NCBI GenBank assembly: GCA_049512315.1
Contig: JBEKXF010000007.1
Location: 1 to 64,000, forward strand
DNA length: 64,000 nucleotides
Source of the DNA: Candidatus Aminicenantales bacterium
Lineage (GTDB): Bacteria > Acidobacteriota > Aminicenantia > Aminicenantales > Saccharicenantaceae
Direction: 5' to 3'
In this document: positions 29,732-35,337 of the stretch, piece by piece
Numbering within the stretch: position 1 is the stretch's first letter
How the letters are laid out: each line of letters starts with the position of its first letter
Notes under the pieces: model-generated
The model's database searches: none
What the model saw: only the letters and a program-made list of their open reading frames with translations
What the model was told of the DNA's origin: nothing
Position numbers and translations under genes: made by a program

Positions 29732-29748
29732 TGTAAAATAAATTTACA
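29732..29748. promoter_or_regulatory. Palindromic enhancer-like site TGTAAA-N5-TTTACA (copy 1)
   Basis: tgtaaa ataaa tttaca, centre about 106 bp upstream of the predicted sigma54 +1. Confidence 0.75.
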
Positions 29749-29819: not shown

Positions 29820-29835
29820 TGGCATGAACCTTGCT
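29820..29835 (+). promoter_or_regulatory. sigma54 (-24/-12) promoter of the SBP-HK-NtrC operon
   Basis: TGGCATGAACCTTGCT, GG-N10-GC, near-consensus. Confidence 0.8.
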
Positions 29836-29924: not shown

Positions 29925-31556
29925 ATGTTGAACGCGCGCCGCTTCATCGGCTTCCCCCTTTTTTTTCTCTGCCTGGCCGCCGTCGGGACGGCCGGACTCC
30001 TCCTTCGAAAAAGCCCTGAGGAAGAGCCTCAGGCCGGCGGCACCCTGGTGATCAAGGCCTATCAGACCCCCTTCAATCCGGTCTTCGATCCGGCCGCGTC
30101 GGCCTCGCACTATTTTGTGATCGAGCAGCTCTTCGACGGGCTGGTCAAATTCGACAACAATTTCGGGATCATCCCCGCCTTGGCCGAGTACTGGACGATC
30201 TCGGACGACGGAAAAAGGATCACTTTTTACCTGCGCAAGGGCGTCAGGTTCCATCACGGCCGGGAGATGACGGCCGAGGACGTCAAGTTCTCGCTGGAGC
30301 GGCTGATCCAGAACCGTCCGGGGAACACGTGCTACCAATATTTCACGGGGAAAGTCGCCGGCTCCGAGGATTTCTGGCAGGGGAAGGCGGCCGAGGTCAG
30401 CGGCTTTCGGGTCCTGGACAGATACACGTTCGAGATCCAGTGGATGCGGCCCTCCGTCTCGGGCCTTTACCTGCTGGGCATGTATTACTGCAAGATCCTG
30501 CCGAAAGACCTCCTCTTGGCCCAAGGCAGGAACTTCTTCCAGAAGCCCATCGGGACGGGGCCTTTCAAATTCTCTTCCTGGCTGCGGGACGAGCGGAACC
30601 CGAGGCTCGGGGCCCTGGGTGTCCGGCTGGAGAGGAACTACCTGTATTTCGGGAAAAAACCCTACCTGGACGCCCTGGAGTATTCGCCCAATTTCACCGA
30701 TAGCCAATTCCAGGACGGGCTCGTCCATGTCATCCCGGTGACGTCCGATAGCCTCCTCGACAAGAGGCTCCAGGTCCTGGAGAACAATTCGCTCCGGTCG
30801 GCCTCGCTGGCCCTGAGCTGCCACATCCCCCCTCTGGACCGGGCCGACGTCCGGAAAGCCCTGGCCCTGGGGATGAACAAGGCCAGGCTGACCGAAGCCG
30901 CGTATTCGGCCTCTTCCGTCCCCCAGGTGACGCAGAACTACATCCCGCCCCTTCTGCCCGGTTTTTTCCCGAGGGACATGAGCCCCGTCTGCGACCCGGA
31001 AAAGGCCCGGATGCTGCTGGCCCGGCTCCTGCCTGAGACGGGCGGCCGCCTGACCTTGACCCTGGCCTTTGTCCTGCCGAAAAGGGACTTCGACCTGAAC
31101 CTCAGCAGAGAGCTCGAGAGGGAGCTCGAAGCGATTGGGGTCAAGCTGGACGTGAGATACCTCAAGGCGGCCGAGAACATCCGGGACATCCGCGGCCCGT
31201 ACCTGAAGTTCCTGGAGTGGAACATGGACTTCCCGGACCCCGAGAACGTCATCCTGCCTCTTTTCGGCTCCCGGTCCCTCACGAACCAGTTCAATTCCCA
31301 TTACTCGAATCCCCGCCTGGACGCCCTGCTCGAGCAGTCTGAGGTCGAGCCGAGCTGGGAGCGGCGGACCGACCTTTTCCGGCAGATGGAGCAGGTCCTT
31401 TATGAGGAGGTCCCCGCGATCCCGCTCTTTTCGGAGCGGGTCAGGATCGCGCTTCGTCCGATAGTCCGGGGGGCGAAGCTCCCGGCCTTGGGCTTCTTTT
31501 TCCTGGATACCAAGGAGATCTGGCTGGATCGAAAAGAAAAATCCGGTGAAGATTAA
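29925..31556 (+). CDS. Family-5 (OppA/DppA-like) solute-binding protein, no cognate permease nearby
   Basis: LFDGLV, PALAE.W.IS.DG...TF.LRKGV.FH.G...TAEDVKFS, PIGTGPF, D.PDP, YSNP..D.LL. Confidence 0.9.
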   Translation: MLNARRFIGFPLFFLCLAAVGTAGLLLRKSPEEEPQAGGTLVIKAYQTPFNPVFDPAASASHYFVIEQLFDGLVKFDNNFGIIPALAEYWTISDDGKRITFYLRKGVRFHHGREMTAEDVKFSLERLIQNRPGNTCYQYFTGKVAGSEDFWQGKAAEVSGFRVLDRYTFEIQWMRPSVSGLYLLGMYYCKILPKDLLLAQGRNFFQKPIGTGPFKFSSWLRDERNPRLGALGVRLERNYLYFGKKPYLDALEYSPNFTDSQFQDGLVHVIPVTSDSLLDKRLQVLENNSLRSASLALSCHIPPLDRADVRKALALGMNKARLTEAAYSASSVPQVTQNYIPPLLPGFFPRDMSPVCDPEKARMLLARLLPETGGRLTLTLAFVLPKRDFDLNLSRELERELEAIGVKLDVRYLKAAENIRDIRGPYLKFLEWNMDFPDPENVILPLFGSRSLTNQFNSHYSNPRLDALLEQSEVEPSWERRTDLFRQMEQVLYEEVPAIPLFSERVRIALRPIVRGAKLPALGFFFLDTKEIWLDRKEKSGED

Positions 31557-33003
31557 GCTGTCGATCTACAAGCGTCTCATCTTCTGGATCACCCTCCTCG
31601 TCTGTATCCTGGTCGGGGCCGTCCTGTTCGTCATCCAGCGGCGCGAGGTCCAGACGCTTTTCGAGCAGGCCCGCGGCCGGGCCGTCCTGATCGCCAGGCA
31701 CATGGCCGAGATCAATCAGCAGCCCCTCGTCCGGTACGATACCGAGACCATCAAGGCGAACATCGATCAGCAGGTCGACGACCAGCTGCCGTATATCATT
31801 TTTTACGATCGGTCCGGGGCGCCCTTCGTGGCCAACGAGCTGGTCCGGTCCCAGGCCGATATCCTGGGCCGCAGTCATTTTGACGAGGATGTCCAGCCGG
31901 ACGCCGAGTTCACCGCGACCCGGCGCATCCAGCTCCAGGACCGGCGGCTGAGGGTCCTCGAAGTCGAGATCCCCGTCTTCCTGCCGGGGAGCGTCAGGAA
32001 GTGGGCCTCAGTCAAGATCGGCCACTCCCTGGAGCCCATGTATGCCGACCTCCGGTCGGTCCGGTTCGTCCTCATCCTCGTCGGGTTCGGCGGGTTCCTC
32101 CTGGGCGTTCTCGGAGCCACCGTGTTGGCGAAAAGGATCACCCGGCCTCTCCGGAAGCTCGTCGACGGCACCGTCAGGCTCTCGAAGGGCGATTTTTCCC
32201 AAGCCATCGATATCCCGCCCGGGGACGAAATCGGGGAGCTGGCCCGGAGTTTCAACGACATGACCGGCCAGCTCCTCCAGACGCGGGAGAGGATGGCCTC
32301 GGCCAACCGGAAGCTCGTCCAGGCCGAAAAGCTGGCCAGCATCGGGCGCCTGGCGGCGACCATCGCCCACGAGATCCGGAATCCTCTGACCTCGGTCAAG
32401 CTCAACATCCAGAAGATCGCAGAGGACGAAAAGCTCGGCGAGGCCGAGCGGGAACACCTCGGGCTCTCCATGGAAGGCATCGGCCAGATCGAGAAGTTCA
32501 TCAAGGGGCTCCTTTATTTCACCCGGGTCGCGGACCTCAACCTGGACCGCTTCCCGCTGGAACAGGTCCTTGAGGAGTCCTTCAAGATGCTCAGGGACAC
32601 CCTGGACCAGAAGGGGATCAGCGTCGAAAAAGATTACGCCGCCGGCTTGCCGCCCGTTCTTGTGGACGGCGACAAGATGAGGCAGGTCTTCCTCAACGTC
32701 CTGAGGAACGCGGAGGAGGCCCTCGACGCCGGCGGGCGTATTTCCGTTTCGATGGGCATGGCGGCCGAGGGCGGACAAAAAAGGATCCGGGTCCGGATCT
32801 CGGACGACGGCCCGGGCATTCCCGAGAAGGACCGGGACAACATCTTCGAGCCCTTCTTCACCACCAAGCCCTCGGGGTTCGGGCTGGGGCTCGCCAACGC
32901 CCGGAAGATCGTCGAGCAGCACAACGGGACCATCAAGCTCGTCCGGAAGCGGGGACGGGGGACCTCGTTCGTCATTCTCATCCCGTGCGAGGAGGGGACA
33001 TGA
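31546..33003 (+). CDS. Two-TM HAMP sensor histidine kinase
   Basis: DEIGELARSFN HAMP, AHEIRNPL H-box, NVLRNA, DDGPGI, FEPFFTTK, GFGLGL. Confidence 0.96.
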   Translation: MKIKLSIYKRLIFWITLLVCILVGAVLFVIQRREVQTLFEQARGRAVLIARHMAEINQQPLVRYDTETIKANIDQQVDDQLPYIIFYDRSGAPFVANELVRSQADILGRSHFDEDVQPDAEFTATRRIQLQDRRLRVLEVEIPVFLPGSVRKWASVKIGHSLEPMYADLRSVRFVLILVGFGGFLLGVLGATVLAKRITRPLRKLVDGTVRLSKGDFSQAIDIPPGDEIGELARSFNDMTGQLLQTRERMASANRKLVQAEKLASIGRLAATIAHEIRNPLTSVKLNIQKIAEDEKLGEAEREHLGLSMEGIGQIEKFIKGLLYFTRVADLNLDRFPLEQVLEESFKMLRDTLDQKGISVEKDYAAGLPPVLVDGDKMRQVFLNVLRNAEEALDAGGRISVSMGMAAEGGQKRIRVRISDDGPGIPEKDRDNIFEPFFTTKPSGFGLGLANARKIVEQHNGTIKLVRKRGRGTSFVILIPCEEGT

Positions 33004-34340
33004 AATCCATCCTGATCATCGAAGACGACGCCCTGGTCCGGCGGACCCTGACATCCCAGCTCGCCAAGGGGGGCTTCGAGGTCATCGCCACCGAGAACGG
33101 AGAGGGCGGGGTGCGGGCCTACGTCGAGAACAATCCCGACCTCGTCCTCCTGGACATCCGGCTGCCGGACATCGACGGGCTGGAGGTCCTGCGAAAGATC
33201 AAGGAGAGGAACCGGCGGGCCATCATCCTTGTCATGACGGCCTTCGACGACATGAAGACGACCGTCGAAGCCATCAAGCTCGGTGCCTACGAGTACCTCG
33301 TCAAACCCCTCAACACCGCCGAGCTCGGCCTGACCATCGAAAAGGCTTTCCAGGTCCGGGCCCTGGAGGAGAAGGTCAGCTACCTCGTCGAAGAGAAGCA
33401 GAAGGAGTACACGATCGACAACATCGTCGGCCACTCCCCCCAGATGAGGGGGGTTTTCAAGATGATCGGCTCGGTAGCCAACACCCGGACCAACATCCTC
33501 ATCCAGGGCGAGAGCGGGACGGGCAAGGAGCTCGTGGCCAAGGCCATCCATTACAACAGCCCCTACCGGGACGAGCCCTTCATCGTCATCAACTGCTCCG
33601 CCATCTCCGACACGCTCCTCGAGAGCGAGCTCTTCGGCCATGTCAAGGGCGCGTTCACCGACGCCGTCTGCGAGACGAAGGGCAAGTTCGAGATCGCCGG
33701 GAAGGGGACCCTCTTCCTGGACGAGGTCGGGGACGTTTCCCCCAACCTCCAGTCCAAGCTCCTCCGGGTCATCGAGACCAGGGACTTCATGAAGGTCGGC
33801 GGCGAAAAGGTCCTCAAGACCGAGGCCCGGATCATCGCGGCCACGAACCAGAACCTCAGGGCCCTGATCGAGAAAGGACGGTTCCGGGAGGACCTCTATT
33901 ACCGGCTCAAGGTCGTCGAGATCATGCTGCCGCCGCTCCGGGAGAGGCGCGAAGATATCCCGGACCTCACGGCCTACCTCCTCGAGAAGATCAACCGCGA
34001 CCTCCGGCGGAATGTCCGGAAGGTCCCGCCCGACGTCATGAAGATCCTCACGGACCTTCCCTGGAGGGGCAATGTCCGGGAGCTCGAGAACGCCCTGACC
34101 CGGGCCGTCATCCTAGCCAAGGGGGACATCGTCCTCAAGGAAAACCTGCCCGTCGATCACGACGAGAAGAGCTCTTTTCCAAGCGAGCTCGTCTCTCTCG
34201 ACAAGGTCGAAAAGAGCTACATCCAGCACGTCCTCAGCGCGGTCAAGGGCAGCAAGACTAGGGCCAGTCAGATCCTCGAGATCAGCCGTCCCACGCTGGA
34301 CAAGAAGATCAAGGACTACGGTCTGGATACCGACGTCTGA
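33000..34340 (+). CDS. sigma54-dependent NtrC-family response regulator
   Basis: REC domain (IEDD, LLDI.LP), GESGTGKE, ESELFGHVKGAFTDA (GAFTGA variant), FLDEV, WRGNVRELEN, Fis-type HTH. Confidence 0.96.
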   Translation: MKSILIIEDDALVRRTLTSQLAKGGFEVIATENGEGGVRAYVENNPDLVLLDIRLPDIDGLEVLRKIKERNRRAIILVMTAFDDMKTTVEAIKLGAYEYLVKPLNTAELGLTIEKAFQVRALEEKVSYLVEEKQKEYTIDNIVGHSPQMRGVFKMIGSVANTRTNILIQGESGTGKELVAKAIHYNSPYRDEPFIVINCSAISDTLLESELFGHVKGAFTDAVCETKGKFEIAGKGTLFLDEVGDVSPNLQSKLLRVIETRDFMKVGGEKVLKTEARIIAATNQNLRALIEKGRFREDLYYRLKVVEIMLPPLRERREDIPDLTAYLLEKINRDLRRNVRKVPPDVMKILTDLPWRGNVRELENALTRAVILAKGDIVLKENLPVDHDEKSSFPSELVSLDKVEKSYIQHVLSAVKGSKTRASQILEISRPTLDKKIKDYGLDTDV

Positions 34341-34364: not shown

Positions 34365-34381
34365 TGTAAATGAAGTTTACA
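34365..34381. promoter_or_regulatory. Palindromic enhancer-like site TGTAAA-N5-TTTACA (copy 2)
   Basis: tgtaaa tgaag tttaca, centre about 95 bp upstream of the predicted sigma54 +1. Confidence 0.75.
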
Positions 34382-34441
34382 GGCGGGAAGGAATTTTGCC
34401 TCCGGCGGGGCGGTTCCCCGCCGGCGTCAGGGGCAGGCGGG

Positions 34442-34457
34442 TGGCATAAAATATGCA
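34442..34457 (+). promoter_or_regulatory. sigma54 (-24/-12) promoter with no credible downstream plus-strand CDS
   Basis: TGGCATAAAATATGCA, GG-N10-GC. Confidence 0.7.
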
Positions 34458-34467
34458 TTCAAAATGG

Positions 34468-34578
34468 GCGTGATGCGAAAGGTCGATCAAAAACTCCATT
34501 CCCCGATACCCTTCCATAACCCTCCTTCTTTTTGTTCCGGAGCGAGGGGTGCCGCGGGGGCACCCCCCCTCTGTTTTT
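34468..34578 (+). ncRNA. Putative sigma54-dependent small RNA with C/U-rich core
   Basis: Lies between a sigma54 promoter and a hairpin plus U tract; core actccattccccgatacccttccataaccctccttctttt; no SD-led ORF. Confidence 0.55.
34544..34578 (+). terminator. Intrinsic terminator of the putative sRNA
   Basis: ggggtgcc/ggcacccc stem (34546-34566) then ctgttttt. Confidence 0.65.
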
Positions 34579-34593
34579 CCTGACCTGCGGAAT

Positions 34594-35337
34594 TCAACTC
34601 AGACCCTGGGACCGTCCCGGGACCTTTTCGGCGGGTTTTTTCGCCCAGAACGTCCCGAAGATCGTATCGCTCCAGACGAGCTCGCAGTGGACGAAGCCGG
34701 CAGCCCGCAGCCATCCCAGCCACGCCTGCTGGGAGACGGGGAAGTAGGCCGGGCGGTTGCGGAGGTGCCATTCCTGGATATCCTGCCTCCTGGCCCCCAT
34801 CCCCATGACGTCCCGCTCCCATTGCTTCCAGACCCCGTCCCCGGCCGGAGCCACGTCCAGCATGACGGAGAATGCGAAGATGCCTCCCGGCTTGAGGGAC
34901 CAGAAGACGTTCCGGCAGACGGCTTCTTTTTCCTCGGGGGAGGCCAGGAAGTGGAGGGCCAGGTTGGAGAGGACGTAGTCGAACGCCGTCGCCCTCGCGT
35001 AGCGGGTGATGCTCCGGCACTCGAGCTCCACCCACTCGGCCGAGCGGCCGAGCCGTTCCCTGGAGGCCTGGATCATGGACGGCTCGGGGTCCACCGACGT
35101 CAGCCTGATGTACGGCTTCTCCTCGAGGAGGCGGGCGCTGAGGATTCCGGTCCGGCAGCCCAGTTCGAGAACGGGAGAGCAGTCCTCATCCATGAGGAGC
35201 ATGGATTCGAGCAGCGATTCCAGGATATCGGCCTGGCAGGGGACGAAATAGCGGATCTCCCTGTCGAAGGCCTCAGGGTTGCGGACCAGGTGGTGGCGCC
35301 CGGGTTCCGGGCGGACTGGGGCTTGCGACTCATCCAT
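34594..35337 (-). CDS. Class I SAM-dependent methyltransferase (CmoA-like)
   Basis: VLELGCRTG, FD.V.S.LALH, LKPGG.F. Confidence 0.85.
   Translation of the reverse strand: MDESQAPVRPEPGRHHLVRNPEAFDREIRYFVPCQADILESLLESMLLMDEDCSPVLELGCRTGILSARLLEEKPYIRLTSVDPEPSMIQASRERLGRSAEWVELECRSITRYARATAFDYVLSNLALHFLASPEEKEAVCRNVFWSLKPGGIFAFSVMLDVAPAGDGVWKQWERDVMGMGARRQDIQEWHLRNRPAYFPVSQQAWLGWLRAAGFVHCELVWSDTIFGTFWAKKPAEKVPGRSQGLS

Follow-up and report, generated by a model that had tools for sequence, protein, structure and literature searches.

What does a sigma-54 promoter drive when the next gene is convergent to it? The question is raised by a locus in the genome of a Candidatus Aminicenantales bacterium, where a predicted promoter of this class lies behind the gene of an NtrC-family activator. 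The original prediction was that a ~110-nt base-pairing small RNA (sRNA) is made there as the output of the two-component system. We examined the locus in the window, by which we mean the whole 64,000-nt stretch of contig JBEKXF010000007.1 (assembly GCA_049512315.1) that was analysed, in the rest of the assembly, and in related genomes and metagenomes. Judged from sequence comparison, the observation is not chance and the locus is a conserved, predicted small RNA gene. At a probability of roughly 60%, we read its product as a trans-acting base-pairing sRNA that is the output of the two-component system.

Layout of the locus

The features are collected in Table 1. The positions first assigned to the activator stop codon (34338-34340), the palindrome, the promoter, the UCC motifs, the hairpin and the T run are all correct, and the next gene is indeed convergent, encoding a SAM methyltransferase and ending at 34594. 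The activator start comes from our own gene calling, and the +1 of the RNA at 34468 is assigned by convention. A second hairpin-plus-T pattern lies at 34612-34641, within the 3' end of the methyltransferase gene, and conservation of it was not seen.

Table 1. Features of the locus, in window coordinates
Feature	Position	Strand	Remarks
Second enhancer palindrome, upstream of SBP-kinase-activator operon	29732..29748	+	Recurs before the orthologous operon in relatives
Sigma-54 -24/-12 site of SBP-kinase-activator operon	29820..29835	+	87 nt from palindrome
Family 5 solute-binding protein (SBP)	29925..31556	+	Pfam SBP_bac_5, E 1e-55
Sensor kinase, HAMP-HisKA-HATPase	31546..33003	+	Pfam
NtrC-family activator: receiver, AAA+ with GAFTDA loop, Fis HTH	33000..34340	+	Pfam
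Enhancer palindrome TGTAAA-N5-TTTACA, putative activator site	34365..34381	+	
Sigma-54 promoter of small RNA, TGGCATAAAATATGCA	34442..34457	+	GG 34443-44, GC 34455-56
Predicted small RNA, ~110 nt, both ends predicted	34468..34578	+	
37-codon ORF without SD, putatively translated	34470..34583	+	GTG 34470 / ATG 34473, TGA 34581-34583
Invariant 23-nt C/U-rich core	34508..34530	+	Anti-SD CCCUCCUU at 34520-34527
3' hairpin and U tract, predicted intrinsic terminator	34538..34578	+	
SAM methyltransferase, convergent; neighbour, outside the unit	34594..35337	-	

Promoter, enhancer and predicted regulon

The genome contains rpoN and has 70 sigma-54-like sites. The palindrome, in the form TGTAA-N7-TTACA, occurs 4 times in its 3.55 Mb, each time upstream of such a site, at distances of 64, 76, 87 and 97 nt. 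The four loci with this pairing are the small RNA, the SBP-kinase-activator operon, and the genes of a secreted 383-aa protein and of an M1 peptidase-domain protein. The 383-aa protein (L441 1275-2423, G000 contig C3), which is encoded beside GWxTD/TPR genes, and the M1 peptidase-domain protein (L442 1510-4167, same contig) are predicted regulon members, and the enhancer-promoter pair before both genes recurs in relatives. The operon itself carries a palindrome and a sigma-54 site that relatives conserve, and positive autoregulation is predicted for it. The RNA would be one of several outputs of the activator, together with its own operon, a receiver gene and two secreted proteins.

Among relatives, the enhancer-plus-promoter pattern matches in 51 of 61 genomes, against 0 for the reversed control. 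In metagenomes, 83 stretches with the 23-nt core of the RNA were collected and 80 read; the sigma-54 promoter is found in 78 (the remaining 2 are cut by contig ends) and the enhancer palindrome in 51 of the 80, in a set selected for the core, so that the synteny set described below gives the fairer count. The palindrome-promoter spacings in these loci fall at 56-57, 66-67, 75-79 and 87-89 nt, steps of about one helical turn. An alignment of the regions behind orthologous regulators, which had been suggested as a check, finds promoter, enhancer, seed and stem covariation kept. A stand-alone small transcript dependent on sigma-54 and the activator is supported: the site and the shared enhancer are conserved, and the transcript itself is predicted.

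Activator orthologues and the lone receiver gene

Orthologues of the activator with 72-96% identity are present in most of 60 relatives, the named ones being mostly Ca. Aminicenantes, and in 1 of 150 genomes drawn from the phylum, that one in the same class. A GAFTDA loop, which we take to correspond to G266D of NorR, replaces GAFTGA in 109 of 110 motif matches at orthologous activator loci. A study of NorR describes GAFTGA-loop substitutions, G266D among them, that remain active (PMC2941729).

The RNA had been placed directly downstream of the activator, which is so here, but in most relatives a lone receiver gene lies between them: at 26 of 30 loci, and at 74 of 80 in a second set, what comes after the activator is a first sigma-54 promoter with an intact receiver gene. 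In such relatives the small RNA element lies further downstream, with an enhancer and promoter of its own. The receiver gene is absent at this position in the present genome and its nearest kin, and elsewhere in the assembly the best match to it has 22-34% identity. Because this clade is without the receiver gene, the direct adjacency of RNA and activator is a derived arrangement. At one locus (L026) the receiver gene, behind the activator and the first promoter, appears frameshifted near its start. By eye, a small Fis-type HTH gene comes after the receiver gene at six others, which represent several clades (L017, L019, L020, L023, L025, L028).

Core, seed and hairpin

The core had been called strongly pyrimidine-rich for this genome, and 36 of 45 bases are C or T, a content reached by 0.07% of genome windows. 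Four UCC motifs were counted in it; all are present as listed, although the first sits in the variable part. What is constant is a 23-nt core, exact in 28 of 28 type A copies found by synteny (with a search pattern that would miss strongly diverged copies) while the leader diverges. It includes CCCTCCTT at 34520-34527, which we take for an anti-SD on the consensus 16S rRNA 3' end; a 16S rRNA tail was not found in the assembly, and identity to this organism's own 16S end rests on that consensus. A generic anti-SD alone cannot account for invariance over 23 nt. Seeds are clade-specific and each is nearly invariant, with UCCUU common to the seeds of all aligned subtypes. The seed is mostly unpaired in types A, B, C and E (mean P 0.70-0.96) and less exposed in types F (P 0.34) and H (P 0.59). 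The motif repeats CCCUUC/CCUCCUU number 2 in type A and at least 4 in the g7 and f6 copies.

The stem at 34546-34566 lies in an extended hairpin, 34538-34573, of -25.4 kcal/mol (z -2.4), which is followed by a run of five T at 34574-34578; the U tract is weak, being short and interrupted in many type A homologues. Across 651 aligned cells of the hairpin 98.9% are paired, and 3 of its 10 pairs show compensatory change; one alignment, A2, has an uninformative row with wrong coordinates and lacks an intended one. Taken as a whole, the 113-nt RNA is no more stable than its shuffled versions (z -0.36), as expected of an unpaired core.

Distribution and neighbours

The combination of palindrome, sigma-54 site, C/U-rich core and hairpin is met with again and again in Aminicenantales. 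By BLASTN, 18 genomes besides this one have the core at E <1e-15, and every one belongs to the same family. With a sequence model, R1, a single syntenic copy is found in 35 of the 36 genomes of the family, and 6 genomes from two further families have one too; as the model was built from these sequences, and without base pairs, this result is partly circular. Other clades have the same position and layout with different seeds sharing UCCUU. Homologues are ~75-290 nt long, from minimal g5 forms of ~75-80 nt with promoter, seed and terminator only to g7 forms of ~280 nt; f3 forms carry a 5' hairpin, and in f7 the seed is borne on a loop. In family f5, none of 4 genomes showed an element in the stretch read downstream of the activator, which was at most 6 kb, and a 19-nt pattern found 0 phage copies in IMG/VR. 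Seventeen weak model matches were re-read as possible displaced or paralogous copies, and none lies behind a sigma-54 site suitably positioned for its transcription; among them is a second copy from g5 that a contig end truncates.

The genes downstream of 94 copies fall into 9 families, with 27 convergent, 39 on the same strand and 28 without assignment; a SAM methyltransferase follows 25 of the elements. Since these neighbours vary in identity and strand, the RNA is not a leader, and a leader of pgs-like or carbamoyltransferase genes was ruled out on this ground. A gene that we presume capB/pgsB-like, by its motif, stands after the RNA on the same strand in three families (L084, L085, L087, L088, L091, L063, L067, L094, L095).

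The short open reading frame

The region had been described as having no SD-led ORF. That is true, but an ORF without an SD opens at +3 and runs through core and hairpin to the TGA at 34581-34583; its 37 codons have no Pfam match. Conservation at the codon level had been named as grounds for a peptide instead. The test finds the open frame maintained in most family f1 copies and the peptide not to be the conserved part.

The frame from +3/+6 is stop-free in 52 of 52 leaders where ~20 stops would be expected: in 22 of 22 leaders of 51 nt (8.2 stops expected from shuffles), 19 of 19 of 55 nt (7.9) and 11 of 11 of 58 nt (4.3), with 2-22 stops per group in the other two frames; the copies are kin, so that such counts overstate independence, and the signal recurs in three genera. 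Leaders of 56 nt have a start codon at one later position where GTG, TTG and ATG interchange (13 of 13), with GGAG 6 nt before it in 12 of 13, and their 3 in-frame stops all precede the start. In g7 the ORF keeps 72-81 codons in 9 of 9 copies despite indels, ending exactly at the 3' edge of a 57-nt core, each at P 0.014-0.041 by shuffle. The g7 core has no synonymous change (pS 0 over 19 core codons vs 0.445 upstream); the constraint therefore acts on the RNA.

For the ORF, pN/pS lies at 0.63-1.04, and a value of 0.58 came from one off-frame. Clades differ in the frame that crosses the core, which is frame 0 only in 45 of 73 copies and frame 2 only in 21 of 73, and peptide length ranges over ~14-81 aa. 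An ORF reaching the core is missing from 5 of 10 long leaders, and also from types B and short E, which have no fitting start near the 5' end, and from 2 of 3 short type A copies. As peptide and frame differ between clades and the ORF is missing in some, the conserved part is the RNA core. We read the open frame as probably kept by selection, either for translation or for a peptide under loose constraint, next to a core held at the RNA level. A -10-like hexamer stands 12-15 nt before 70 of 973 SD-less starts in this genome vs 2 of 1506 SD-led ones, and leaderless starts look possible on this count.

Other frames were also considered. A minus-strand ORF behind the antisense AAGGAGG ranges from 4 to at least 100 codons in 81 copies and was dropped as not conserved. 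After the second sigma-54 promoter, six loci (L020, L089, L127, L129, L145, L156) have ORFs that follow an SD and encode hydrophobic products of 15-30 aa, which to us resemble signal peptides or type I toxin-like peptides. At L138 and L139 a longer secreted-type gene with a similar start takes the small-RNA position.

Targets, partners and expression

Target prediction, also suggested as a check, was done in four ways, none giving a result above controls, at low power (2 genomes, 842 pairs in one of them); such tests are weak for short seeds and few targets. Ranking of duplexes in the single genome put only strong-SD genes on top. Feedback on the RNA's own operon was rejected, as the module genes rank 1081 (the activator ribosome-binding site), 1361 and 2525 of 2706. 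Exact or near complements of three seeds were sought, each in 5 genomes; of the 85 matches 68 were read, and no gene among these is shared between lineages. The mscL gene, a lead from these matches, was dropped as a target because it did not co-vary: over 15 genomes of type A the mean for seed A is -15.0 kcal/mol, which does not surpass that of foreign seeds, and the type B seed looked better at -22.9 kcal/mol in 4 genomes, in a test where 13 of 50 loci, including all 9 of g7, were unparsed. Strong sites shared by 842 orthologue pairs, compared at low power between this genome and 2.0 Mb of one relative (G018), number 15 for the real seed and 9-19 for 10 control seeds. The ~110-nt base-pairing sRNA of the original prediction is partly supported, as a conserved, predicted small RNA gene with an unpaired anti-SD-like seed, but not by any target above controls.

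The only Hfq-like gene found in the genome (L097 1617-1961, G000 contig C9) is divergent, with an N-terminal extension and 28-31 bits against the Pfam Hfq models. CsrA was not found in this 96.6% complete genome; a CsrA sponge of the CsrB/RsmZ type was set aside, the GGA repeats being antisense and CsrA not found.

As to expression, 21 runs recorded as RNA contain a few words of the region, at shares of 0.04-0.08. In 4 of 4 runs examined, the core and the hairpin are covered by contigs from relatives, which show 1-4 differences (14 in one longer piece) and a depth of 2-6 for the listed pieces. Being contigs only, they give neither strand nor ends and may contain DNA, and their uncovered parts and depths are uninformative. 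They run 49-74 nt past the hairpin, and one also spans the promoter.

Interpretation

In the reading that we prefer, a trans-acting base-pairing sRNA, the SBP and kinase would, by their domains, sense a ligand and phosphorylate the activator, which would bind TGTAAA-N5-TTTACA and open the sigma-54 promoters of a small regulon: its own operon, the lone receiver gene, the two secreted proteins and the small RNA. Predicted structure and conservation put an unpaired C/U-rich seed centred on UCCUU ahead of the terminator hairpin, and this seed, probably with the Hfq-like protein, would occlude the ribosome-binding sites, of AAGGAG type, on several mRNAs. Across most of family f1 the open frame starts just after the 5' end and reaches or crosses the seed; ribosome traffic, more than the peptide, appears to be selected, and may plausibly shield the 5' end or tune seed availability. 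In other clades a 5' hairpin, or nothing, would take that role of the ORF.

A different weight on the same ORF gives a tentative second reading, which we consider possible: ribosomes would be kept, by selection, running onto or over the anti-SD seed, in any frame and with any peptide, and the seed would be freed only when the RNA's own translation slackens. If this were true, the activity of a sigma-54 sRNA would read out ribosome availability, and the clade series (a signal-peptide gene, a truncated hydrophobic ORF with seed, a variable ORF over the seed, an ORF-less 75-nt RNA) would capture the stages by which an mRNA gives rise to an sRNA. Rather unlikely is a decoy, whose CCCUUC/CCUCCUU repeats would titrate a pyrimidine-binding protein such as Rho, bS1, the Hfq-like protein or a factor recognising the 16S 3' tail. 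The multiplied motifs of type A, g7 and f6, the long invariant unpaired tract and the empty target searches all suit it, as does the fact that several known sigma-54 sRNAs act in this manner, CrcZ and GlmY being protein decoys. Seeds that vary between clades yet are fixed within each fit pairing partners better than a conserved protein, the minimal forms have a single motif, and the GGA repeats that CsrA would need are on the opposite strand of a genome where it was not found. We hold it unlikely that a small protein is the main product, either of a true dual-function RNA or of a small-protein mRNA with a constrained 3' part. The stop-free 5'-anchored frames, the interchanging start codon with its GGAG, the g7 ORFs that end at the core's edge and the SD-led hydrophobic ORFs of other clades speak for it; against it are the pN/pS values beside that of the off-frame, the switch of frame over the core, the clades without the ORF, a core without synonymous change, and related copies that inflate the counts.

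That the element is a translation-coupled attenuator is very improbable. The seed would pair with the 5' arm of the terminator unless covered by a ribosome, and would so control read-through into the next gene or antisense to it; the order of leader ORF, seed and hairpin would allow this, a helix of seed and 5' arm does form when the 3' arm is absent, and the RNA-run contigs pass the hairpin. Cognate seed/arm pairs are no better than swapped ones, though, and do not co-vary, the genes downstream differ from copy to copy, with 27 of the 66 assigned ones convergent, and ORF-less forms exist. Largely refuted is a functionless relic, a promoter left after loss of the receiver gene plus an ordinary terminator. 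The promoter here does sit where relatives have that of the receiver gene; relatives that keep the receiver gene also have the second promoter and the element, and core invariance and stem covariation extend across genera.

Under the preferred reading of a base-pairing sRNA, the uncultured class Aminicenantia would have an sRNA family of its own, defined down to its promoter, enhancer and regulon. A search of the Aminicenantes/Aminicenantia and RNA literature found no sRNA paper, with subscription papers and supplements outside its reach, and motif-discovery tables could list the family. More unusual is that an ORF stays open although its product is not conserved, next to a seed that is invariant at the nucleotide level. 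If the ORF is translated, the clades offer a natural series on whether ribosomes gate or protect an sRNA and on how sRNAs originate from small-protein mRNAs.

Comparison with known systems

The RNA had not been recognised as a described family, and Rfam agrees, with 0 matches at gathering in the window and a best E of 3.1 in the region; the alpha-r14/NfeR1, RsaE, CrcZ, GlmY and Qrr models likewise have no match in the window at gathering. Pxr (RF01812) has none at the locus, its best score in the genome being 21.8 bits elsewhere against a cut-off of 80. CrcZ (under CbrAB), GlmY (GlrKR/QseEF) and Qrr (LuxO) are sigma-54 sRNAs under an enhancer-binding protein; CrcZ and GlmY differ from the present RNA as protein decoys with other motifs and in having no Rfam match here.

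LhrC and RsaE are not known to be sigma-54 dependent. LhrC shares with our RNA two-component control (LisRK) and redundant CU-rich motifs that block translation (PMC4132741), and RsaE its C/U-rich, translation-blocking seed motifs (PMC2790875). Both are from Firmicutes, LhrC is multicopy, and neither has an Rfam match here.

The closest layout is pxrK-pxrR-pxr of Myxococcus xanthus, where the genes of a kinase and an NtrC-like regulator immediately precede that of an sRNA for which a sigma-54 promoter and an enhancer region are predicted; the three are co-conserved across a clade and the targets are elusive. Pxr has three stem-loops and a host without hfq (PMC5684412), unlike the one hairpin after an unpaired seed, the Hfq-like gene, the SBP and the ORF found here. 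NfeR1/alpha-r14 has ultraconserved anti-SD seeds and a tie to an NtrBC-type system, but it displays them in the loops of three hairpins, as CCUCCUCCC, and NtrC represses it while ntrB is silenced by it (PMC10746234). Our RNA has a linear seed and is predicted to be activated, and pairing with its own operon ranks 1081-2525 of 2706.

In AzuCR, Spot 42/SpfP, SgrS/SgrT and sRNA154, an ORF overlaps or precedes the pairing region, as here; translation can compete with pairing in such dual-function RNAs, the ORF of sRNA154 is leaderless, and they are reported to have a defined functional peptide, conserved where stated (PMC8915982, PMC12612679). In our family a maintained ORF is found, mostly in family f1, and a conserved peptide is not: peptide, length and frame all shift from clade to clade, and some clades lack the ORF. 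The RNA belongs to none of the pxr, NfeR1, LhrC and dual-function RNA families compared. The family is real, conserved and undescribed; the kind of circuit is a known one, of which an open but unconserved ORF makes this a variant.
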